Below are positions 32,811 through 44,173 of a stretch of DNA of 64,000 nt, in pieces. The stretch's first letter is position 1. Every line of letters starts with the position of its first letter. Under the pieces are notes generated by a model that saw nothing but the letters and a program-made list of their open reading frames with translations, did no database searches and was not told where the DNA came from. The position numbers were made by a program, and so were the translations under genes. This stretch comes from Limnoglobus sp. Lineage in GTDB: Bacteria; Planctomycetota; Planctomycetia; Gemmatales; Gemmataceae. The stretch is from positions 6,722-70,721 of the forward strand of contig JBGSJI010000048.1 of the NCBI GenBank assembly GCA_041742055.1, written 5' to 3'.

Positions 32811-33524
32811 CGTGAAGCTCCTATTTTCAACGTGGTGACGGTCCGACAAGCGCCCTGTCTCTGGACAAATGGGCCTTGCGTCGGAAGCCGTAAGTCGTTA
32901 TTTCTGAGGGAACGGTCTACAGGTGCTGGCCACAAATGCAGGAACCCCACTCCCGGACACCCGGATTTCATTCGGGGTTCGAGGAACAGGGTAATACTGG
33001 GCCAAGGTGTCTGTCTGGAAGTCAAGTGATCGCAGGAGCCAGTGGGCCGCGTGCATGTTCACCACTGCTTTTGCGTTGGTTAGCGAAGTTAGGTACGATC
33101 CCAAAACAACGCAGACCGGGAAAAAAAGCCAACCTCACACCATTTCCAATGATATTCTGATTCTGCAAGTCCGTCGAGATCTCACGGCACATTTTTTGCG
33201 TCATGTTCATAAGTTGCTTGAAAAAGCAAGTGAAATTTCATGCCATTTTATTCATTTTTTTCTTTTTTCTTCGGATTCAAGGTCGCATTTCCTACCCTGA
33301 AAATACACTAAACGGCACCGTGGCTCCCCCGGAACGTATGGGTAACGAGTTCAGACTGAATGGGAACAATCCGCTCGCTCAAGAACGATCCAGCGGGGTC
33401 CTAGCGGTAATATCGATTTGGTAGTTTGAAACGATTTTGTCATTTCGTTGAATTTTGACACTTCATTTTCCCGATTTAGCGAGTAACGACCGGCCTGCAT
33501 GCCGAGTGTTCGGGGGAAGTGCAC

Positions 33525-36203
33525 ATGAAACGGTATCGTTGGAAGATCGCTGCGGGATGCCTCGCATCGGTTGTGCTCAGTTCAAACTCGTCCGTTGCAC
33601 AATTGCCCTCGGATCTTCCGAAAGCCCCGCCGGCGGGTCTGGAACTCTCGACTTCGCCCATCCCGGCCGAGTTGCCCGTCGTTCCGACCGATGAAAACAT
33701 TCGATTGGCGCAGGGGCCGGATCTTCCCACGCCAGTCCAACCGACCACCATTCCTACACCAACCCCAACACCCACGCCGGTTCCGACTCCGCAGCCGGAA
33801 CAAGCGAAACCTTCCGCTGGCGGGTCCAGCAGTACCGTTTCGGTGAATCCCGATACGGGGACGGGACAACCCCAGGCGGTGCAAGCCGGCGGTCAACAAC
33901 CCGCACAGGCACTGAACGCCCCGGATCTCGGCGGGCTTTTGAGTAAGTCGGATCAGGCGACGGGTGTCGAAGTTCAGCGGCGGAACGCCATCAGCAGCGA
34001 CCCCCGCCTACGCGGTTTACGAAACGGTCAGTATCTCGCGCTTGGCGATGGTGTACCCTATTTCCCTGGCCGGCTCGATCTCGATACTCCGGTTTCGAAG
34101 TTTTACCCTGCCATGGTTCGTGACGTGCAGGTGGTTCGCGGGCCGTTCACAACACTCCTCGGGCCCGGATTCGGTTTCATCAATATCGGTACCGTTAACT
34201 CGCCCCGTTCCCAGGATCGATGCGGTGGCGTCGAATATCACGGGATTTCGTCACTCGGTTATCAGACCAACGGCGAACAATACAACGCCCTGCAGGTCGT
34301 CTCCGCTGCCGGATCCAACTGGGGCTTCCGTGGGAGTTACAATATCCTGCAGGGGAACGATTTCTCGGACGGCAACGGAAACAAGATCCCCGCCAGCTAC
34401 CTCTCGAATAACTTCAACGTCGCTCTCGGTTACGATCTCACCGATAACCTGTCGATCGAATTCAAGGGGCTGCGAACGTTCCAGAGCAACCTGGAGTTTC
34501 CCGGTCTGTACTTCGACGTCGATGCCTCCGATACCGAAGCGTACAACATCCGGCTGACCGCCAAAGACTTCGGCCCCTTCGATATCTTCACCACGGATCT
34601 GTGGTACAACGTCTCGACGACGAGCGGCAGCACGAGGGGCGGAGCGAAACAGCAGTTCGTGAATACCCTGCTCCAGTTCGCATTCGAAGAACCGTTCCTT
34701 CCGCGCGATGCGTCGGGCCAGCCGATCGTCCGAGGCGCAACGCTTCGGGGTTATGAATTCGCTGATATGTCCACCACCCGCTTCGCCGAGCGCTCCATCG
34801 GTTACCGGTTCACGGGCCAATGGGGCAACCTGATGGATGAACTGACGATCACCATGGGGACGGATCTCAATCTGTTCGGTCAGGGCCTTGTGGAAAATAT
34901 CAAGATCGCACAACTCGGCGGGCCGGCTATTCCCGCAATTGACCCGAATACGAATATGCCAACGAATATCTTACAACAGACACAGGGCATCCCCAACTCC
35001 AACAGTTTCAATCCGGGGTTGTTCCTGGAAGCCATGCTACCGGTTGGCGAAACTTTGAAATTCAAATCCGGCGGTCGAATCGATTACGTCCGCACGAGCA
35101 GCAATCCGCGCCTGATCACCGGTAACGTGGACCTCTTCGGAAACCCGCAGAATCCGCTTCCATTCGGACAACCTCGCTTCACACTCGATCCCAGTATTTA
35201 CTCAGTTGATCCTTCACCCATCAGCATGAGGCCGGGAGATGTCAACCCGGTGACACGGCAGTTGGATCGCGATTTCTCGCTTCTGGCGGGATTCGCGACG
35301 GCCGAATACAAGATCACGGATGCGACGACCTTGTTCATGGGATACGGATATGCGGAACGTGCACCGAACCTGACGGAACTCTATGCGACCGGTCCCTTCA
35401 TCGGCGTGCTCCAGACGGGAACGAGCCGTCTGATCGGTGATCCGAATCTTTCCAAGGAGCGGATGAATCAGTTCGATGTGGGCCTGCGATACGACACCGA
35501 TTATCTCAAATTCGGCATCAGCGGTTTCTATGCCATGATCAATGATTACATCACCTACGATGCCAATCGCTTGTCGTCACTCGGTCTCTCACAGGTGGTC
35601 TTCACCAATACGGATCTGGCGACCCTCGCCGGTACGGAAGTGTACTTACAGGCGAATGTGACCAAGTGGCTCTCGCCCTTCGCCACTCTCAGCTATGTCC
35701 AGGGGATCGATCAGACTCACGTGGACAACCGCCGCGGTACCGTCTTCACGACGGTGGATGCCAACGGCACTGTGCTTACGAATCGGCTGGACAGCAGCCG
35801 CCGTCGCGATCCCGCCAGCGGAGCCTTCGCAACCGATACCGAACCGCTGCCGCAGATTCCTCCCATGGAAACGAGACTCGGCTTCCGCATCCACGGCACG
35901 CAGGATGTCCCTAAGTGGCAGATCGAAGTCGCTACACGGATCGTAAGCGGTCAAAACGCCATCGCAACCAGCCTCGGTGAAATTGTCACACCCGGATTCA
36001 CGACCATCGACATCCGCGGGTTCTATCAGGTCAACAAGAACCTGCTGATCACCGCCGGTGTGGAAAACCTGGGAGACCGGTTCTACCGAGAACACCTCGA
36101 TCCGGTCGCGTCCAACCTGCTCCAGAACGCCACCGGGGTGAGCGTGCCGCTGCTCTTCCGTCCGGGTACGAACTTCTTCTTCAATACGCAATACACGTAT
36201 TGA
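33525..36203 (+). CDS. TonB-dependent-receptor-like outer-membrane protein (plug + beta-barrel) with a Pro/Thr-rich N-terminal linker
   Basis: Signal peptide. PTPTPTPTPVPTP linker. Plug blocks VEVQRRNAISSDPRLRGLRNGQYLALGDGVP and VRDVQVVRGPFTTLLGPG. Barrel ending FFFNTQYTY. The ATG at 33525 is preceded by GGGGGAAG. Confidence 0.8.
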   Translation: MKRYRWKIAAGCLASVVLSSNSSVAQLPSDLPKAPPAGLELSTSPIPAELPVVPTDENIRLAQGPDLPTPVQPTTIPTPTPTPTPVPTPQPEQAKPSAGGSSSTVSVNPDTGTGQPQAVQAGGQQPAQALNAPDLGGLLSKSDQATGVEVQRRNAISSDPRLRGLRNGQYLALGDGVPYFPGRLDLDTPVSKFYPAMVRDVQVVRGPFTTLLGPGFGFINIGTVNSPRSQDRCGGVEYHGISSLGYQTNGEQYNALQVVSAAGSNWGFRGSYNILQGNDFSDGNGNKIPASYLSNNFNVALGYDLTDNLSIEFKGLRTFQSNLEFPGLYFDVDASDTEAYNIRLTAKDFGPFDIFTTDLWYNVSTTSGSTRGGAKQQFVNTLLQFAFEEPFLPRDASGQPIVRGATLRGYEFADMSTTRFAERSIGYRFTGQWGNLMDELTITMGTDLNLFGQGLVENIKIAQLGGPAIPAIDPNTNMPTNILQQTQGIPNSNSFNPGLFLEAMLPVGETLKFKSGGRIDYVRTSSNPRLITGNVDLFGNPQNPLPFGQPRFTLDPSIYSVDPSPISMRPGDVNPVTRQLDRDFSLLAGFATAEYKITDATTLFMGYGYAERAPNLTELYATGPFIGVLQTGTSRLIGDPNLSKERMNQFDVGLRYDTDYLKFGISGFYAMINDYITYDANRLSSLGLSQVVFTNTDLATLAGTEVYLQANVTKWLSPFATLSYVQGIDQTHVDNRRGTVFTTVDANGTVLTNRLDSSRRRDPASGAFATDTEPLPQIPPMETRLGFRIHGTQDVPKWQIEVATRIVSGQNAIATSLGEIVTPGFTTIDIRGFYQVNKNLLITAGVENLGDRFYREHLDPVASNLLQNATGVSVPLLFRPGTNFFFNTQYTY

Positions 36204-36225
36204 GAATTGCCGATTCAAACTCGAA

Positions 36226-36249
36226 GCCGATGGGCATCTGCCCATCGGC
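36226..36249. terminator. Bidirectional hairpin between the OMP gene and the tssM-like gene
   Basis: GCCGATGGGCA-TC-TGCCCATCGGC followed by TTTCAGATTTT. It lies between convergent stops at 36203 and 36252. Confidence 0.7.
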
Positions 36250-36251
36250 TT

Positions 36252-37913
36252 TCAGATTTTGACACCTTTGAAGAATTGCAGATAAACAATGCCGCCGCAG
36301 ATGGCCAGTAACAGGATCGCTGCGATGTACAGCAAGCCCGACCATTGAGAATACGATTTGTCCTCTATGATCGCTTCAGTGGACCAACTCACTGCATTCT
36401 GCGATTCGGTCAGCCGCTGGAAGACACCGGCAACGAACGCCTGATGCTTATCATCGCGTCCGGTGGCGGAAAGGTAGCAACCCGCAACGAGAGGATAACT
36501 GGCAAGTTGATCACTGTAGGCTGTCGTCGCTTCGACAGGAAGACCACGTGAGAGGATCCGGCCCAGCCTCGGACCACGAACGAACATTTCATGAAGAAAC
36601 GCAAAGAGCTTCTGATTCGTGGCCGGGACGAAGGCCCCGGTGTTGCGTTGTTCCGGCGGCCAGTCCAGAGTGAGATACTTGATGACCCAGGTCGCCAGCA
36701 CATTCATCCGGATCCAATCGGCCGCCACTTCCATGATGGTCGGGATTTCTTCAGGCGGACGATCGGGAACCAGAGGGAGCCGCTGGCCGATCCGTTGTTT
36801 GAGCATTTCTTTGGGAAACTTCCGGCGGAATTCTTCGAATCCCGTGGCCTGTTCGAGATCGCAGATCATGACAACATGCGCGAATCGCTGCCGGAGGGCG
36901 GAACGGGCCGTCGCCAGATCCGTCGCGAGGACGCCGACCGCGTTCCGGCAGAGTTCGTCGGATTCCAGTGCCGCCCAGGGCAGCAGCACCATCATTCCGT
37001 TGATCGGGCAATACGGCCTTCGATCTCGCGTGATCAGGTGGCAGAGATAGGCCAGACGGCGGGGGCCCATCATCAGCACATCGCTGGAAAGATTGATCCT
37101 CCGCATTCCGCCAGCCGCTTTCGTCGATTGAATCAGTTCGCCCAGTTCGCGGAGTCGAGCATCTTCTTCCGGTGTCAGTACGCGATCGCTCTGGATCTGC
37201 AGCAGCCGATAGAATTCGTCTTGCACTTTTTCATCGACCCCTTTGAGCGCCTGTCCGGGAGTAATGGTCTTGCCGATAGCAGACTCTCCAGTGGATTCGA
37301 ACCCTCCTCCGATTTCCGGGTTGGCGAGCGCATCGGCGAAGCTTCCCCAGGTCGAGGCTCCCGAACAGCAGACGAAGATGCCTTCCGGTCCTGCGAAAAT
37401 TCGGATGGGAGAATCGACAGCGAGGGGTGTCCGTAGTTTGATGGGCAGACCGGACGCCAGAAAGAGCGCATCGTCACCGGTTGAAGGTTTTCCCAGCACC
37501 AGAAAGAGCGGCAGGTCGCCGAGCCGGTATCCGTTCTGGGCGAGCTTGCGGATGGCCTCGTCCCATGCGGCTTCGATGTCCGGGAATTCGGCGGCATCTC
37601 CGCGATTGAACAGTTTCCACCAGTAATAACCAAGCCAGCTGATGACATAAATCAAAGCGAAGATCAGCGGGAGATAGATCTCCTTGATTTCTTTTGTCGC
37701 TTTCGAAATGAGCAGATCCTGAACGAACTTCTGCTTGTTGAGATACCACAAACCCCAGAAGATGAGCATCAGAATGATGACATGGACGAGATAGCGAAAC
37801 CACTTTGGCCAGGATCGAAAATCCGCCGCTTCGGAAAAGACCGGAATGATGAGGCCGACGATTCCGCGGATCCACATCAACAGTGAGGATCCAAACATGA
37901 CAAGAGCTTGCAT
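36252..37913 (-). CDS. tssM: TssM/IcmF N-terminal-domain protein (truncated type: no periplasmic C-terminal domain, degenerate Walker A)
   Basis: Three N-terminal hydrophobic helices. LPLFLVLGKPSTGDDALF aligns to the TssM LPWYLxIGxxGxGKT box but lacks GK[ST]. PINGMMVLLPWAAL matches the conserved TssM PLNGVxxxxS block. The last TM helix (LLYIAAILLLAICGGIVYL) is followed by only 8 residues and a stop. Lies 19 nt downstream of the dotU-like gene. Confidence 0.7.
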   Translation of the reverse strand: MQALVMFGSSLLMWIRGIVGLIIPVFSEAADFRSWPKWFRYLVHVIILMLIFWGLWYLNKQKFVQDLLISKATKEIKEIYLPLIFALIYVISWLGYYWWKLFNRGDAAEFPDIEAAWDEAIRKLAQNGYRLGDLPLFLVLGKPSTGDDALFLASGLPIKLRTPLAVDSPIRIFAGPEGIFVCCSGASTWGSFADALANPEIGGGFESTGESAIGKTITPGQALKGVDEKVQDEFYRLLQIQSDRVLTPEEDARLRELGELIQSTKAAGGMRRINLSSDVLMMGPRRLAYLCHLITRDRRPYCPINGMMVLLPWAALESDELCRNAVGVLATDLATARSALRQRFAHVVMICDLEQATGFEEFRRKFPKEMLKQRIGQRLPLVPDRPPEEIPTIMEVAADWIRMNVLATWVIKYLTLDWPPEQRNTGAFVPATNQKLFAFLHEMFVRGPRLGRILSRGLPVEATTAYSDQLASYPLVAGCYLSATGRDDKHQAFVAGVFQRLTESQNAVSWSTEAIIEDKSYSQWSGLLYIAAILLLAICGGIVYLQFFKGVKI

Positions 37914-37932
37914 GACGATCCGTTGTTAAGTG

Positions 37933-38616
37933 TCAATCGTATTGCGACAGATACCGCGCCAGGACGGCGGCGCCGGCGAACAGCCCCGCGGCGGCCACAA
38001 CCATCAGAACCCGGCCCGCCGTGCGAAATCGATCGCGCCCGCGGAGTGGAGCGACGTTCATCTTCATTCCAAGATCGGCCGGCATGCGGAATTCCTGCTG
38101 ATGGGAATCCATCACACGGCGCTTGACCCGGTCAACCCATTCCGGTGGATTGATGATACCAGGATCTCCCCGGAAGCCGAGCATGACACACCAGAGATAC
38201 GCTTCGACCGCTTCCGCACCGGGCCGCTTCTCCGCAAGATCCGCCTGAAGCCAGAACCGCCACGCACGCTCCTGACCCCCGCCGTAGAGTTCGGACTCCA
38301 GGGATTTCTCTTTCCAGGACCGTGCCCAGTTCCGATTGGATTCCGAAACATCGTTGATGAAGATTTCATCGAGCCAACTCGCGAGTGCGTAGCGAACACC
38401 GAGGAAGTCGGTCGAAGTGGGTTGCACCGGCCGCGGGACGTTATCGCCGTAGTCCGGGTGCGCGCGTACCGCGCCATCGGCCCAGAGCATCGACTTCAGT
38501 CGGGCATTTTCCGCATCGAGGAGCACGCTCTCGCCGCTCAGCACGCGCTCTTTCAGGTTCAGGCCGTAGGCCAGAACTTCGAGAACGTGACTGGTCAGTT
38601 CATGAGCTATCGGCAT
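37933..38616 (-). CDS. tssL: DotU/TssL family protein (cytoplasmic domain plus single C-terminal TM anchor)
   Basis: VRYALASWLDEIFIN..., SLESELYGGG, AVEAYLWCVMLGFRGD, then TM helix VLMVVAAAGLFAGAAVLA. Size and layout are typical of DotU without a peptidoglycan-binding extension. Confidence 0.8.
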   Translation of the reverse strand: MPIAHELTSHVLEVLAYGLNLKERVLSGESVLLDAENARLKSMLWADGAVRAHPDYGDNVPRPVQPTSTDFLGVRYALASWLDEIFINDVSESNRNWARSWKEKSLESELYGGGQERAWRFWLQADLAEKRPGAEAVEAYLWCVMLGFRGDPGIINPPEWVDRVKRRVMDSHQQEFRMPADLGMKMNVAPLRGRDRFRTAGRVLMVVAAAGLFAGAAVLARYLSQYD

Positions 38617-38633
38617 GAGGCGTGTCTCTCCCG

Positions 38634-40055
38634 TCAGGTTTTGGGCGGAATGACATAGAGCGTGAAGCGCAGAATCGGTTGCCGGTTGGGCTGCCCCTTG
38701 ATCATGACGTCGCGTTTGCCTTCGAGATCGCCGGAAAGCAACCGCTCATTGAGGCGGATCGCGACTTTGCGGGTCTTCTGAACAAACGGCCATTCTTCCT
38801 TGGTGGCTTCGATCGAGAAGTAAGTGTCTTTCTTGGTGATGGGCAGGACCCGTGGCGGCTGCGGTTCGTGGCGGAAGATCATGCCGCGATGCCCGCGGGC
38901 GTAGACTTCCTCGACCCGATCGGACGAGGCGATTTTCATGTTCATCTGTCCCGCGGTCAGCAGCGCGATGACTTCGGCGCTTGCGAGGTTCGACTCGACG
39001 CCGACGAACATTTGCCAGCCGGCCGCGAGCCATGGTTCCTCCATGTCCACCTGCATCTGCAACCCCTTGCCGCTGAACGGGCGTTGCTGAAATTTGCGAT
39101 CCGCCCCGATCATGTTGAGAAGTTGATCGAGGATTCGCTTGAGTTCGAAGAATCCCGTTCCGAGGTCGTCGTGATCGTAATCGACCAGTTCGGGGCAGAC
39201 GCGTTCGGTCCCGAAGATCGCCAGCTGACCGATCAGGCGGCAGAGTTCTGTGAAAGCGGTGAGCGGGTGGATGCCGTCGGTGCGTGCGAGTAGCCGCGTG
39301 ACGGAGGCAGCCTCGTTGAGGAGCCGGACCTGCTCGAACATGAGCCGCGCTTCCGGATCGGTATCCTGAAATGTGATTTCGCGGTCGCGGACCGTGGTGC
39401 CGAGATCGCGGACGAGCGTGCCGATCTTGTAGTAGATGGGCTGAAGGATATCGCTGCGGAGTTCGGGCCATGCCTCGCAGGCAAGCACGGGCGGGATGAT
39501 CGCGCGGTTGAGGATGGGAGCCGTGTCGCCTTGTGTGGAGCGTGTGAGTGTCGCGAGCGGGAGCGTTTCGTACCCTGCGGAGTCCTGGCCTGAGAGCAAA
39601 AGCGTCAGGCTGAGGCGGCGAAACTGGAGCGGCCGTTCATTTTTTCCATCGTTTTCATCGGGCACCCGTGGGTCGGATTCAATGCGGTAACGCTTCTCGT
39701 CGTCGTTTGCTCCTCCGACGTTCACGCGTCCGACTTCGAGTGTCGGAACCGCCAGAAAAACTTCGACCTGATCGTTCTGTTCGAATGCGAGGCGGAGGTC
39801 GAGTTCGCGCAGGTTGCAGTCCTGCGGCACGCGGACGATGGTGCCGTCGCGCATCCGCGCCTGCAGAGTGCCGACGACAAAACGGTAGTTTTTCAGGGCA
39901 TTTCGATCGATATCGATCCGGCGGATGCCCCAGTTGTAAGGGGAATCCCAGCGGCTGGATTGGCGCGTATAGTCCGCCCAGAATCGATCCGAGGCCTGAA
40001 AATGGTGCGGACGAAGGAACATCCCTTCGTGCCAGTACACCGGTAGCGTTCGCAT
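38634..40055 (-). CDS. tssK: Type VI secretion baseplate subunit TssK (VasE/ImpJ family)
   Basis: N-terminus MRTLPVYWHEGMFLRPHHFQASDRFW...GTLQARMRDGTIV matches the hallmark TssK shoulder-domain start (xVxWxEGMFLxPQHFQQxDRY). At 473 aa the length is typical. Start moved to the ATG at 40055. The 33 codons upstream in the track ORF have no homology signal. Confidence 0.85.
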   Translation of the reverse strand: MRTLPVYWHEGMFLRPHHFQASDRFWADYTRQSSRWDSPYNWGIRRIDIDRNALKNYRFVVGTLQARMRDGTIVRVPQDCNLRELDLRLAFEQNDQVEVFLAVPTLEVGRVNVGGANDDEKRYRIESDPRVPDENDGKNERPLQFRRLSLTLLLSGQDSAGYETLPLATLTRSTQGDTAPILNRAIIPPVLACEAWPELRSDILQPIYYKIGTLVRDLGTTVRDREITFQDTDPEARLMFEQVRLLNEAASVTRLLARTDGIHPLTAFTELCRLIGQLAIFGTERVCPELVDYDHDDLGTGFFELKRILDQLLNMIGADRKFQQRPFSGKGLQMQVDMEEPWLAAGWQMFVGVESNLASAEVIALLTAGQMNMKIASSDRVEEVYARGHRGMIFRHEPQPPRVLPITKKDTYFSIEATKEEWPFVQKTRKVAIRLNERLLSGDLEGKRDVMIKGQPNRQPILRFTLYVIPPKT

Positions 40056-40238
40056 GGTGGGTCCCGGAAATTCCGCGGAAATCGCACGGATCGTACTTTC
40101 GTAGGTATACCCGATGAACCGGTTCAGGTGAAGGGGCCAATGCCGCTTGTTCACCTGCCAATCATCAGATTCGGTTCGCTTTGTATCATGGTAACAATTG
40201 GTCGTACCATTTCAGGGTTGGCTTGAGTGGGTCCGAGT

Positions 40239-41258
40239 ATGAATGAGATCGACTGGTGGAAGGGGCATCGGCCAAACCAGATGCTCGATTTTGTTGAGAA
40301 TCGACTGACGCCACGCCGCTGGCGGTTGCTCAGTACCGCCTATCTCCGGCGCCGCTGGGACCTCGTTCCCGAAGGCGTCTTCCGCAACGCCGTCGAGTTT
40401 CTCGAGCGCAACGCCGAAGCGCCCCGAGCCTCGTTCGCCAAAGAGTGGATCGAGCGGCTCACCGTTGCGGTTGCGAAACTCGTCCAGCAAGCCATCGACG
40501 AAACCGAAAAACTCGTCCAGTCCGCCGCCATGGAACTGATCGAAACGCCTGCCACAACCGCGCCGGCGCTCCCGCTCTTCGTTGCCGCCGGCCAGTACGC
40601 CTCGCTGGCCGTTTCCCTCGCCGGCAGACCCGTCGAACTCGCCGTTCAAGCCGTGCAATGCCTCTTCGAACAGCCCGGACGCGATGCCACCCTGCGCACC
40701 GCACAACAAATCGAAGACGCACTCGTCGCCCGCGCGAACTGCGCCCGAGCCGTCTCAACCGCCCTCCGCCTCAAACTCCAGGGCGATGAAATCGCAGATG
40801 CCGCCGTCGGCGCGAAAAACAAACGCATCGAACTGGCAAAGGCGGAGGAGATCGTTCGCCGCACACGCGAGCAGGACGATAATCGCCTGATCGAAGACGA
40901 CCTTGCCGAACGCGCGGTCCGGAAAGCCCTCGCACGTTTCCTGCACGAACTCGTGGGCAATCCCCTGAGCGACTACGCGTTCAAAGATTCCTGGCGAACC
41001 GAGACGGTGATCGGCTTGGCGCGGGGAATTGAAGAGGATCGGGCGTTCGACCGGATGCCGCTGCTTGCCGATGCGCTGCTCGATGCGGACTGCGATTCCG
41101 AGGCCGTCCTCCGGCACCTGAGAGGAACCGAAAAACACGCGACGGAAAAATCCATCCACGTGAGAGGATGCTGGGTTCTCGATCGCATTCTCAGACCGGA
41201 CGATCCGCTGTTCGGAACGGCAGTCCAACCGAAAGCCAAACGAAAAAAGAAAACCTAA
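40239..41258 (+). CDS. Hypothetical protein of the planctomycete/myxobacterial paralogous family ending in the ...HVRGCWVLD motif
   Basis: N-terminus DWWKG..P.QMLDFV...RRWRLLSTAYLRRRWDLVPE..FRNAVEFLERNAE. C-terminus LLADALLDADCDSEAVLRHLRG...HVRGCWVLDRIL. I recognise both as a recurrent uncharacterised family. Transcribed divergently from tssK. Confidence 0.55.
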   Translation: MNEIDWWKGHRPNQMLDFVENRLTPRRWRLLSTAYLRRRWDLVPEGVFRNAVEFLERNAEAPRASFAKEWIERLTVAVAKLVQQAIDETEKLVQSAAMELIETPATTAPALPLFVAAGQYASLAVSLAGRPVELAVQAVQCLFEQPGRDATLRTAQQIEDALVARANCARAVSTALRLKLQGDEIADAAVGAKNKRIELAKAEEIVRRTREQDDNRLIEDDLAERAVRKALARFLHELVGNPLSDYAFKDSWRTETVIGLARGIEEDRAFDRMPLLADALLDADCDSEAVLRHLRGTEKHATEKSIHVRGCWVLDRILRPDDPLFGTAVQPKAKRKKKT

Positions 41259-41277: not shown

Positions 41278-43857
41278 TCAGTTGCGAGACAGTTCTTTTT
41301 TGGGAAGTCCCTGAATCCATTCGCTTTCCAGTTTCAATGCCCCACCCGGTGTCTTCGTCAGCCATTTCTTGAGCGCGTTCGGATCGACACCCGCCTCCAA
41401 CAGGCAGGCTGCGGTCCCCGCGACCACACCCGACGCCAGTTCCGGTGACTCTGTGCCGTTCACGATCACATTAGGTTTCTGTCCCAAAAGGATACCGGGC
41501 CCGGCTCCCGTCAGTCCCGTGTCGATTCCCACGGTCAGTGCGATCGTGGCATCGCCAGGAATCGCAACGCCCGACTCCGCCGGCGCGTACGAATCAAGGA
41601 CCAACCGGTTCGCCGCCGCGCGATTGACCAGCGATGCATACAGCCGCGGACGGATCTCGTACTTGTTTCGATTCGTCACTGCCAACGTCTCGCTTGCGAA
41701 CCTGCCCGTGACACGCACGGCGTACACGCCATCCGCCGGAATCGTCGCCTCCAGCGTCTGCTCAAAAATCGAAGCCGTCAGATACCGCTGGATTCTCACC
41801 GGTGGGCTTTTCGCTTCAGCCACGATGCTCAGAACATCAGAACTCGTCTGTTTGCCTTCCGGGTCAATCTGTCGGAGGAGTTGGATCGTCATCGGGAACG
41901 ACGCAGCCTCGCTCAGTTCGAGATCGGGGTCGCGCGGCTCGCGCCACTGGATGCTAATGTGAACTTTTGTACCGGATGGGATTGTGCGTGTCGATTTCCC
42001 GTCCGCTGTCGCCAGCGCCAGAAAATTCAGTTCGCGTGCCCACTCATTCTGAGCGGTTTGATCGCTGATATACTCCATCGCGCCATTGCCATCACGATCC
42101 AAATAGGGTCCCGCCCACACCGCTCCGTGCGAAGTGCTCGCCGCCTGAACCCAAACCGGCGGAAGCGTCGCCCGCGAGGCGTGGATTCCGGTGCGGGTCG
42201 GCGCAACGGATAGTTTCTTCTCGATCAACTGGCTTACCGTGCTCAATCCGTCGTGAGCATATCCATCTTCCCAGACCAGCGTGTTCACGATCAGATCAGC
42301 ACCCTTGAGGCTTTGCAATTGACTTTTGAGAATCTGAAGCCGGTCAAATTTGCCTTTATAATTCGCCTCATCAGCCTTCAGGCTCTTGAATGCTTCCGCC
42401 GCATCCGTGCGCCGCTTGGCCGGCTTCGGATCATCGCTCAGATCGCTGAACGCCTTGCGATACTCTTCCTCGACCAAATCGCGGCGATTATTCAAGTACG
42501 CGCTCTCGGCCAGCAATTCATTGCCGCGGGAGATCATCGCGACTGACAAAGAGGCGTCACCCGATGCCATATTCATGGCCGAGATTAACTGGTGAATCGC
42601 AATCGGATTGATCCGGACCAGAATCAGTTCCGCACCCGGAGCAATCACGCTGATCGCTTTGGCCGTGGCGGTACCCGATCCTCGGCCCGCGGGTGCCGGC
42701 TCAATAGTTTGAGACAACTCGGCCGTCAGGTCGATCAATCGGGCATTCTTCGGAAGTTCGCCCGGGAACTCCGTTGCCAGTACGATCACGCGCTTCCCGT
42801 CTCCGCGATAGCCGGCTTTCTGCAGCAAAGCGATATTGCTTGACTCAATGCCGACCGGCTTCGTGTTCTCGCCGGCTCCCGGTTGGAGCGAAGCCAATCG
42901 CGGAAGCCGAACGGAATGGATATCCGGCAACGCCGCGATCTTGGCCAATTCGGCAGCATTCGGAACTGACACCACCGCGAATCGTCCGAAGACTCCCTCG
43001 ATCGCCGCCTTCGGCACGCGCATCCGGAGCATCTGCCGGAATGACAACGCCCCTTCAGGAATCGGCGCGCCCGTCAGGAGTTCCACCGTCATCGGCTGCA
43101 TGGCTTTGGCCGGGTCGGTGAGATGGCTCACGAGATTCGCTTCGTACTTCGGCGAGGCGATGGCGGGAGGCAAGGGTTGAAGGTCGGGTACTGCCGGGCC
43201 GGGATCGACGGGTTTGAGCACCTCAACCAGCCGGATCGGAAGTATGTCACGCATCGGCAGATTCAGTTCGTCTCGCGGGATCTCGCTGAAGAACCAGCCG
43301 GATGGCAGATCGCGCAGGTCGCGGAGCAGTTCCGGAACTTCGCCGGACGGGAGCGTCCCGCGAATGATGCTGTACCCCTTGTGGGCGTATCCCACATATT
43401 CCTGGAATCCCAGACGAGTCAACTGAGCGACGACCTGCTCGTGAAAGGTTCGCTGTTCAATCAGGTTCAGTCCTGAGGGGATCAGAATCCGCAAATGGGA
43501 AAGCGCCTTCGCATCATCGGGCAGCGGCGTCGCCGAGTCGCGAATGAGAGAGGTCTTCACGGCATCGATTTTGAGCACCGCATCTATCGCGGAGGAAGGG
43601 ATCGTACCCGCCAGGCGCTCGGCGGTCGGATCGAACTTGTCGAGGTCCGCATCCTCTCGCGGATCCTGGACGAAGCCGAGTTTCGTCAACTGATCCATGA
43701 GCGCTGTGTACGCGCGCACGCGCTGATTCAATTCCTTCGAGATGCGGTAGCGCAAATCCAGATGATACTGTGCGGGCGGTTGCGGTTCCACCACCTGTGC
43801 CGAGATCGGAGCACAGAGGAGATTCAACGCAGCGAAGACAGAAAGGCAAACCCGCAT
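41278..43857 (-). CDS. Secreted 859-aa protein, subtilase (S8)-like scaffold with substituted catalytic positions and a coiled-coil insertion (tentative)
   Basis: Signal peptide MRVCLSVFAALNLLCAPISAQ. VIVLATEF, GSGTATAKAISVIAPGAELILVRI and NGTESPELASGVVAGTAACLLEAG resemble the S8 Asp, His and Ser boxes but carry A/T, G and E at the catalytic residues. A charged helical stretch lies between them. Confidence 0.4.
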   Translation of the reverse strand: MRVCLSVFAALNLLCAPISAQVVEPQPPAQYHLDLRYRISKELNQRVRAYTALMDQLTKLGFVQDPREDADLDKFDPTAERLAGTIPSSAIDAVLKIDAVKTSLIRDSATPLPDDAKALSHLRILIPSGLNLIEQRTFHEQVVAQLTRLGFQEYVGYAHKGYSIIRGTLPSGEVPELLRDLRDLPSGWFFSEIPRDELNLPMRDILPIRLVEVLKPVDPGPAVPDLQPLPPAIASPKYEANLVSHLTDPAKAMQPMTVELLTGAPIPEGALSFRQMLRMRVPKAAIEGVFGRFAVVSVPNAAELAKIAALPDIHSVRLPRLASLQPGAGENTKPVGIESSNIALLQKAGYRGDGKRVIVLATEFPGELPKNARLIDLTAELSQTIEPAPAGRGSGTATAKAISVIAPGAELILVRINPIAIHQLISAMNMASGDASLSVAMISRGNELLAESAYLNNRRDLVEEEYRKAFSDLSDDPKPAKRRTDAAEAFKSLKADEANYKGKFDRLQILKSQLQSLKGADLIVNTLVWEDGYAHDGLSTVSQLIEKKLSVAPTRTGIHASRATLPPVWVQAASTSHGAVWAGPYLDRDGNGAMEYISDQTAQNEWARELNFLALATADGKSTRTIPSGTKVHISIQWREPRDPDLELSEAASFPMTIQLLRQIDPEGKQTSSDVLSIVAEAKSPPVRIQRYLTASIFEQTLEATIPADGVYAVRVTGRFASETLAVTNRNKYEIRPRLYASLVNRAAANRLVLDSYAPAESGVAIPGDATIALTVGIDTGLTGAGPGILLGQKPNVIVNGTESPELASGVVAGTAACLLEAGVDPNALKKWLTKTPGGALKLESEWIQGLPKKELSRN

Positions 43858-44173
43858 GGCGGTCTCGCGGTGAGGGACGGAATCATTCAATTACCAGTAT
43901 GCCCTCTCAAGCCGGTTCTGGGAAGCACCCAGCATCCTGCCGGCGGAGTTTCTCGCATCCGCGATAGACCCATGACGATTGGCGCGAATGTACGAATTGC
44001 AGCGATTGAAGATTGTTCCGAATCGAATCTGAGAGTTGTGAGAATCAGGGAGTGACAGCTCTTTATGAAATTGAGAGATGAGTTGTGTGTTGTGAGTTTT
44101 TGAGTCAGGAGATCGGTGATCGAATCGAGAACGTCGGTGATCGATTCATTTCAGGACTCGTAACTCACGGCTT

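Follow-up and report, generated by a model that had tools for sequence, protein, structure and literature searches.

What a tssK-tssL-tssM operon serves when it stands apart from the other genes of a type VI secretion system (T6SS) is the question raised by a 64,000-nucleotide (nt) stretch of DNA from Limnoglobus sp. (Planctomycetota; Gemmataceae; GenBank assembly GCA_041742055.1, contig JBGSJI010000048.1, positions 6,722 to 70,721 of the forward strand), referred to here as the window. The operon (Table 1) consists of three co-directional open reading frames (ORFs) with gaps of 17 and 19 nt, a layout that the original prediction, made from the sequence alone, had described correctly. It encodes TssK (K), TssL (L) and a short TssM (M'), the last with N-terminal membrane helices, a cytoplasmic domain with a degenerate P-loop, a single C-terminal transmembrane helix (TM) and no periplasmic domain. 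With a probability of about 0.8, this unit is the TssK-TssL-TssM operon of a planctomycete T6SS whose genes are scattered round the chromosome in this Gemmataceae lineage. Scattering of T6SS genes is common in planctomycete genomes. Within the window the triad is indeed alone. Pfam detects no other T6SS family in any large ORF, and tblastn with planctomycete TssA, TssB, TssC, TssE, TssF and TssG queries finds no match in the 64 kb, which upholds the absence of further T6SS genes claimed at the outset; 3 of the 13 T6SS core genes lie within the window. The remaining content is ordinary planctomycete chromosome, with rpoB, rpoC, enolase and PSCyt, PSD, DUF1501 and DUF1559 proteins.

The first gene encodes a full-length TssK. 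It scores 264.7 bits against TIGR03353 (cut-off 100), with residues 5-439 covering model positions 2-419 of 429, and 246.9 bits against PF05936. Identity of its product to K of the closest Gemmataceae loci is 77-90%, and to Rhizobium TssK 29%. The start lies at position 40055, at the conserved M..LPVYW methionine of the homologues, and an independent gene call likewise gives 473 residues. A longer GTG-started ORF (to 40154) was rejected, since homologues start at M..LPVYW and promoter-like elements fall within the extension. The second gene encodes a TssL that passes PF09850 (DotU; 47.3 bits, gathering score 27), scores 36.9 bits against TIGR03349, under its cut-off of 89.95, and matches the DotU-family protein of PDB entry 6y4r (E 1.5e-4). 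Its single hydrophobic segment is a TM at residues 202-220 of 227, with 7 residues beyond, and it shows the layout of a cytoplasmic domain with a C-terminal anchor.

The third gene encodes a TssM that stops early. M' passes PF14331 (IcmF-related_N) at 31.4 bits (gathering score 25), and hhalign aligns residues 301-508 of its family profile with residues 224-423 of the 1158-residue TssM of Rhizobium johnstonii pRL12 (probability 97.5%, E 6e-12). The membrane layout of the two proteins corresponds. M' carries N-terminal hydrophobic helices at 5-29, 41-59 and 76-97, against 28-46 and 55-79 in Rhizobium TssM, and the TM that follows the cytoplasmic domain lies at 527-545, against 435-461; the TMs of M' are 41-59, 76-97 and 527-545. 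At the Walker A position, M' reads GKPSTGDD where Rhizobium TssM has GAPGSGKT at 143. The M' loop departs from the GxxxxGK[ST] pattern, and the consensus of its family is GRPxxGxD. The Walker A motif is dispensable in some canonical TssMs. Beyond the last TM, M' ends at residue 553, 8 residues on, whereas about 700 periplasmic residues follow in Rhizobium TssM. Neither periplasmic Pfam domain (IcmF-related PF06761, IcmF_C PF06744) was found in M' or in the precomputed domain lists of its homologues. The M' stop codon lies 48 nt from the end of a convergent gene, and a hairpin lies within this gap, so there is no space for the decayed remainder of a tssM. From the alignment, the TM layout and the stop position, M' therefore corresponds to roughly the N-terminal 460 residues of a TssM; its P-loop is dead and the periplasmic part is missing. 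The assignments made in the original prediction, to TssK, to a DotU/TssL with one TM helix and to the TssM/IcmF cytoplasmic domain, are all supported by profile searches at the Pfam level. So are its claims that tssM ends 8 residues past its last TM, without the periplasmic domain, and that the nucleotide-binding loop lacks GK[ST], and every peptide motif that it quoted is found in the three translations.

The same triad recurs in other planctomycetes. Scanning a single genome for each species gave 56 loci. Planctomycetota is the label of most of them, three carry 'Alcaligenaceae' and one 'Bacterium' only; the planctomycete labels are Gemmataceae, Fimbriiglobus, Limnoglobus, Tundrisphaera, Pirellulaceae, Anatilimnocola and Planctomycetaceae. 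The contigs of L004, L012 and L040 are titled 'uncultured Alcaligenaceae bacterium' yet hold typical planctomycete triads, which looks like mis-binning or mislabelling of metagenome-assembled genomes (MAGs). K and L stand directly upstream of M' in most of the 56 loci, and K is inverted in four.

How closely these triads are linked to other T6SS genes varies by degree. The neighbours of tssK in the window are tssL and the short tssM, while linkage of its orthologues to tssE, tssF or tssG is seen in L029, L025, L034 and L039. L029 begins with a partial ORF of weak TssA similarity and continues with tssC and, further on, tssE-tssF-tssG-K-L-M'; tssG lies upstream of K in L034, where it adjoins it, and in L025 and L039, where it is several kilobases off. 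The Anatilimnocola locus L055 runs from K-L-M' past a sigma factor to tssA-tssB-tssC, and tssA, tssB, tssC, tssE and tssF are also present in L045 and L058. Closer to the window, the Gemmataceae and Fimbriiglobus loci L008, L010 and L011 have tssA divergent from K and an M' that is 53-57% identical to that of the window. Two planctomycete main T6SS blocks have the order tssA-tssB-tssC-tssC-tagJ-tssE-tssF-tssG-clpV(-hcp-vgrG) and hold no tssK, tssL or tssM; K-L-M' is therefore a separate module throughout the phylum, sometimes beside the main block and sometimes not. In a neighbour-joining tree of M', T6SS-linked clades of Pirellulales type are basal and the window clade falls inside Gemmataceae, beside the tssA-linked loci. 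In Gemmatales, loci where tssA or tssG adjoins the triad still occur, and the window clade nests among such lineages. This makes the window triad orthologous to T6SS-embedded triads rather than a separate paralogous line.

Genomes of close relatives keep a further T6SS gene at a distance. The closest triad, in MAG GCA_019636445.1 (L021), shares its flanking genes with the window and has a K of 90% and an M' of 76% identity; the lone tssA of this MAG lies on another contig, with pheT, a NuoN-like gene, DUF1501 and a sigma-54 activator around it. GCA_964453375.1 (L004) has the same arrangement of a triad with a lone tssA elsewhere, and in Fimbriiglobus ruber a single contig carries both tssA and the triad, each isolated, with about 690 kb between them. 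Limnoglobus roseus PX52 reproduces the arrangement of the window, with a divergent 349-residue gene, K, L, M' and a convergent TonB-dependent-receptor-like gene. A table of sheath proteins gives L. roseus a T6SS sheath protein of 491 residues (PMC9230969). A tssA that shares 65% identity with the one in the close MAG comes from the same sequencing-run series as the M' of the window and probably belongs to this organism. The lone tssA of the closest relatives (L062, L068) has a conserved housekeeping context of pheT, a NuoN-like gene and a fused gene resembling those for major facilitator superfamily transporters and spermidine synthase, and it lies two genes upstream of a sigma-54-dependent response regulator. 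Such regulators control some T6SSs.

The original prediction had offered two explanations for the triad. Its unusually split T6SS is favoured by the orthologous triads in or beside full clusters, the nested clade, the lone tssA and the L. roseus sheath protein, and its repurposed docking platform or new envelope system is left unsupported by the orthology with T6SS-embedded triads. Its description of the triad as stand-alone holds for the window and fails for the system, given the T6SS-linked orthologues and the tssA found elsewhere in relatives.

Several results weigh against a dispersed T6SS. In a TssC profile search for Gemmataceae sheath genes, the best 120 matches were taken up by Pirellulales and Planctomycetales, with no Gemmataceae names among them, which leaves that search uninformative, and no TssA of L. 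roseus was retrieved. We infer tssB, tssC, tssE, tssF, tssG, hcp and vgrG to be present in this very genome, of which the 64-kb window is what was seen here. M' scores 11.2 bits against the full-length TssM model TIGR03348, whose cut-off is 388, and its family profile found no TssM among PDB sequences. An AlphaFold (AF2) model of M' (67 homologues; predicted local distance difference test score 88, predicted TM-score 0.78) has no significant structural neighbour in the PDB, where it shows only weak TRAFAC-GTPase resemblances (YsxC, Obg; E at least 0.19); on this model, the fold evidence on the identity of M' appears neutral and is inconclusive. The Gemmataceae MAG STL-PLA23 carries two triads, the copies of which may differ in role: L014 is orphan-like, with M' 38% identical to that of the window, and L039 has tssG about 6.5 kb upstream, K inverted and M' 29% identical. 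The pair suggests two T6SS membrane modules or sub-functionalisation. A consensus promoter scan made no call upstream of tssK, the match being too weak. The hairpin behind the short tssM has no clean U-tract and was not flagged by a U-tract-based terminator scan; the hairpin terminator placed earlier at 36226-36249 is thus confirmed as a hairpin, with a perfect 12-bp stem, but not as a terminator call.

In T6SSi, TssK is the link between the cytoplasmic domains of TssL and TssM on one side and the TssEFG-VgrG baseplate on the other; tssJKLM forms a conserved gene group (PMC10781749). The parts retained in the window are exactly those needed for TssK to interact with TssL and TssM, which makes a docking site the most likely role of the triad. 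TssL would be tail-anchored through its one TM, and the short TssM, with its membrane hairpin, NTPase-like cytoplasmic domain with a dead P-loop and single C-terminal TM, would form an inner-membrane platform with it. TssK would bind the cytoplasmic domains of both and recruit the TssE/F/G-VgrG baseplate, on which TssA would prime the Hcp tube and the TssB/C sheath; TssA, Hcp, TssB/C and the baseplate proteins would be encoded elsewhere.

The strongest competitor, which we consider unlikely, is a repurposed and self-sufficient inner-membrane platform in which K, L and M' work without a contractile tail to dock or localise another envelope machine. The absence of any further T6SS gene within 36 kb on one side and 24 kb on the other would fit such a platform, as would the conserved promoter-like elements and hairpin of the triad's own, the recurrence of a TonB-dependent-receptor-like outer-membrane protein (OMP) alongside it and the MAG with two triads. 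We know of no role for TssK beyond baseplate docking. Orthologues of the triad lie in or beside complete T6SS clusters, sister lineages retain tssA beside K, the genomes of relatives conserve tssA, a component exclusive to T6SS, and L. roseus is listed with a sheath protein; all of this speaks for a docking site within a T6SS instead.

A relic, the surviving piece of a T6SS since lost in this lineage, is very improbable. The window has none of the other core genes, and the distribution of T6SS in Planctomycetota is patchy (PMC5394234), as such a history would have it. The ratios of nonsynonymous to synonymous substitution (dN/dS), calculated against relatives at a synonymous divergence of about 1-2, are 0.055-0.106 for K, 0.07-0.12 for L and 0.11-0.13 for M'. 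Because dN/dS is 0.05-0.13, all three triad genes are working genes; their intactness under strong purifying selection, the preservation of the arrangement across several genera and the persistence of tssA in relatives all contradict decay.

Slightly less credible again is an anchor for a different machine, either a particle resembling an extracellular contractile injection system (eCIS) or T6SSiv, or a DotU-IcmF system of the type IVB secretion system (T4BSS) kind. The Legionella Dot/Icm T4BSS is reported to use DotU and IcmF homologues (bioRxiv 10.1101/315721). Around the triad, no T4BSS or eCIS genes were found in about 60 loci, and T6SS genes are the only machine genes that recur there. 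To our knowledge, Dot/Icm systems also have no TssK.

The possibility that the short tssM is an artefact of a frameshift, a mis-assembly or a contig break, named in the original prediction as a result that would overturn it, is virtually nil, as an identical 553-residue M' occurs on 4-5 independently assembled contigs, a conserved convergent gene follows closely on its stop and hundreds of homologues stop at the same point, a family-wide conservation of length that refutes it. A word-indexed search returned 153 M' homologues, nearly all of 537-582 residues and down to 32% identity, with PF14331 as the sole domain in each. With an exhaustive profile search, the number of matching cluster representatives reached 2504 at E<=1e-3, of which 918 passed E<=1e-30; the top 150 of the 2504 are 380-630 residues long and matched through their last residues. 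The existing NCBI name for proteins of this type is 'IcmF/TssM N-terminal domain-containing'. The short TssM is the native, standard form of the phylum and not a truncation specific to this locus, contrary to the peculiarity implied earlier, and this T6SS is therefore without the usual TssM-TssJ conduit across the periplasm and outer membrane.

Compared with canonical T6SSi (the imp cluster of Rhizobium johnstonii pRL12; Sci-1 of enteroaggregative Escherichia coli), the window shares the tssK-tssL-tssM order, a full-length TssK, the DotU fold region and C-terminal TM of TssL and the hairpin, cytoplasmic-domain and TM layout of TssM, and the tssB-tssC-tssC-tagJ-tssE-F-G order of Rhizobium is common to the planctomycete main block. 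The triad differs in that its TssM lacks the roughly 700 periplasmic residues (IcmF-related, IcmF_C and the TssJ-binding end) and has a degenerate Walker A motif. Its TssL is short, at 227 residues against 510 in Rhizobium, and its operon is without tssJ, fha and tagF and lies apart from the sheath and baseplate genes. No TssJ was seen. In Pirellulales, a small conserved ORF between the short tssM and a sigma factor was considered for TssJ and is an unlikely candidate, being acidic and without a signal peptide.

Other departures from the canonical complex are known. The non-canonical complex of Acinetobacter baumannii is likewise a T6SSi that deviates from TssJLM, with TssJ missing, but it keeps a full-length TssM with its periplasmic domain and adds TsmK and other proteins (PMC10564176). 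Bacteroidota T6SSiii docks the conserved TssK baseplate on a phylum-specific membrane complex, TssNQOPR, of which TssR has a domain like that of von Willebrand factor A (vWA), and does without TssL and TssM, whereas Planctomycetota retain the cytoplasmic and membrane parts of both (PMC10781749). No relatives of TssN, TssO, TssP, TssQ or TssR turned up, although no search was aimed at them. Legionella Dot/Icm resembles the triad in its pair of DotU-family and IcmF-family proteins, which forms an inner-membrane subcomplex. Legionella IcmF retains its periplasmic part, unlike M'. A shortened tssM product also occurs in Citrobacter rodentium, where transcriptional frameshifting is reported to rescue a premature stop that is confined to the one species (PMC4256274); the short M' is the conserved end state of a large family.

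Planctomycetota T6SSs have been known at the level of annotation since 2009 (PMC2660368; PMC5394234; PMC6461901). No description of a short planctomycete TssM, or of a phylum-wide loss of the TssM periplasmic domain, was found in the open-access full-text literature that was searched. The conserved short TssM is real and apparently undescribed, and a T6SS in which just the cytoplasmic and membrane half of TssL and TssM is retained is apparently new. Only tentatively, and with the odds somewhat against it, the Planctomycetota T6SS might form an undescribed architectural class in which the tail and baseplate dock on an inner-membrane-only complex of TssL and short TssM, with no periplasmic arches and no TssJ.

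Two groups of neighbouring genes are candidates for the parts beyond the inner membrane. The OMP convergent to the short tssM in the window clade combines plug and 22-strand barrel families, and its closest partial matches, none of which reaches its cut-off, are to copper and haem receptors. This OMP lies near the triad in 11 distinct loci (the window, L001, L004-L006, L008, L013, L014, L021, L029 and L049); in the more distant ones it stands within 10 kb of the triad at varied positions, and the copy in the full T6SS cluster L029 is 32% identical (E 5e-120). Judging from gene order, this recurrence could reflect inherited synteny or a functional link, for instance as an outer-membrane partner or in T6SS-linked metal uptake. 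The second group is absent from the window. It is a conserved three-gene set beside the triad in 11 loci (L013, L016, L017, L019, L020, L023, L027, L028, L037, L041 and L049; for example L027:13263-21349) of Gemmataceae, Isosphaeraceae and Planctomycetaceae, directly downstream of and convergent to the short tssM in most of them and upstream of K in L019. It encodes a vWA protein of about 1100-1700 residues, a bitopic protein of about 880 residues and a bitopic protein of about 650 residues with a prealbumin-like C-terminus. The set has no detectable similarity to the periplasmic domain of TssM. The idea that the large membrane proteins beside the short tssM in some loci, c9a and c9b, are the detached periplasmic half of a split TssM was rejected at the sequence level (hhalign probability about 0.1% against the 1158-residue Rhizobium TssM).

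An 870-residue protein encoded in the window, the 'dead-protease-like exoprotein' of the original prediction, has a signal-peptide-like N-terminus and no Pfam or NCBIfam match; it is kept beside the divergent gene in L005 and L021 only, and no evidence of a link to the triad was found. Of the partners proposed earlier, the OMP gains suggestive support from its recurrence, and neither it nor the secreted protein nor the palindromic tract is shown to be one.

The triad seems to be transcribed as a unit of its own, in one transcript, because conserved elements lie upstream of tssK and a hairpin follows the last stop. The upstream elements, TTCACC-17 nt-TATACC, are kept in position in 6 loci (the window, L004, L005, L021, L001 and L006), with related TTGAAC...TATACT elements in L008 and L010, and would act as a promoter. 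The hairpin (folding energy -28.2 kcal/mol, z -5.35) is probably a bidirectional terminator. A search by eye for a special motif shared by the promoters of tssK and the orphan tssA gave only ordinary sigma-70-like -35/-10 elements, with a spacing unfit for sigma-54, and no evidence of a regulon emerged from the comparison. A second conserved block, TTGYTACCATGATAC, lies in the region between tssK and the divergent gene in six loci and is probably the promoter of the latter. The divergent gene has no family match and occupies the position that tssA has in sister lineages; a degenerate TssA was considered and rejected (hhalign probability 0.04%).

Table 1. Features of the window (positions count from its first nucleotide).
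Feature	Position	Strand	Remarks
tssK-tssL-short tssM triad	36252-40055	-	three co-directional ORFs
tssK, T6SS baseplate/membrane-complex adaptor	38634-40055	-	473 residues; PF05936 and TIGR03353, full-length coverage
tssL/DotU, short tail-anchored form without periplasmic peptidoglycan-binding domain	37933-38616	-	227 residues; PF09850
Short tssM (M')	36252-37913	-	553 residues; PF14331 and hhalign to Rhizobium TssM
GC-rich perfect 12-bp hairpin AAGCCGATGGGCAgaTGCCCATCGGCTT	36224-36251		between the convergent short tssM and TonB-dependent-receptor-like gene
Sigma-70-like promoter elements TTCACC-17 nt-TATACC	40104-40132	-	upstream of tssK, ending 48 nt before the ATG
Conserved block TTGYTACCATGATAC	40183-40197		tssK/divergent-gene intergenic region
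TonB-dependent-receptor-like OMP gene	33519-36203	+	convergent to short tssM
Divergent gene	40227-41258	+	343 residues
Gene for 870-residue protein	41278-43890	-	signal-peptide-like N-terminus

Regulatory genes accompany the triad in other lineages. A sigma-70-family factor of about 240 residues lies between the short tssM and tssA in eight loci of Pirellulales type (L042, L043, L045, L050, L051, L055, L056 and L071), preceded in six of them by a small acidic protein of about 130 residues, and in other loci the triad often has Ser/Thr kinases beside it. These neighbours recall the control of a Xanthomonas T6SS by an extracytoplasmic function (ECF) sigma factor and a kinase (PMC8999054). The composition of the window is uneven: the GC content is 0.59-0.64 at 16-22 kb and about 0.49-0.52 both at 48-52 kb and over the first 14 kb, and two stretches, 46-48 kb and 56-58 kb, have a strongly positive GC skew of about 0.2.

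The orphan status of the operon in the window is in itself ordinary, being explained by a dispersed T6SS. It matters for detection, since tools that demand co-located genes or a full-length TssM under-call T6SSs in Gemmataceae, where tssA and tssKLM are isolated units. The short TssM has the wider meaning. In well-studied T6SSi, the complex of TssJ, TssL and TssM is the exit channel of the spike, so a phylum with this short TssM has either another envelope-spanning part or a way of firing without a channel. If the Planctomycetota T6SS is an inner-membrane-only class, passage through the periplasm, which is large in planctomycetes, and the outer membrane would run through unrecognised parts, for which the OMP and the set of a vWA protein and two bitopic proteins are candidates, or the spike would simply punch through. 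The replacement of TssJLM by TssNQOPR in Bacteroidota is a precedent for interest in phylum-specific membrane complexes. Cultured carriers exist, with closed genomes in Limnoglobus roseus PX52, Anatilimnocola sp. NA78 and Tundrisphaera sp. TA3 and a draft genome in Fimbriiglobus ruber, which makes it testable how a T6SS with this short TssM would cross the planctomycete envelope.

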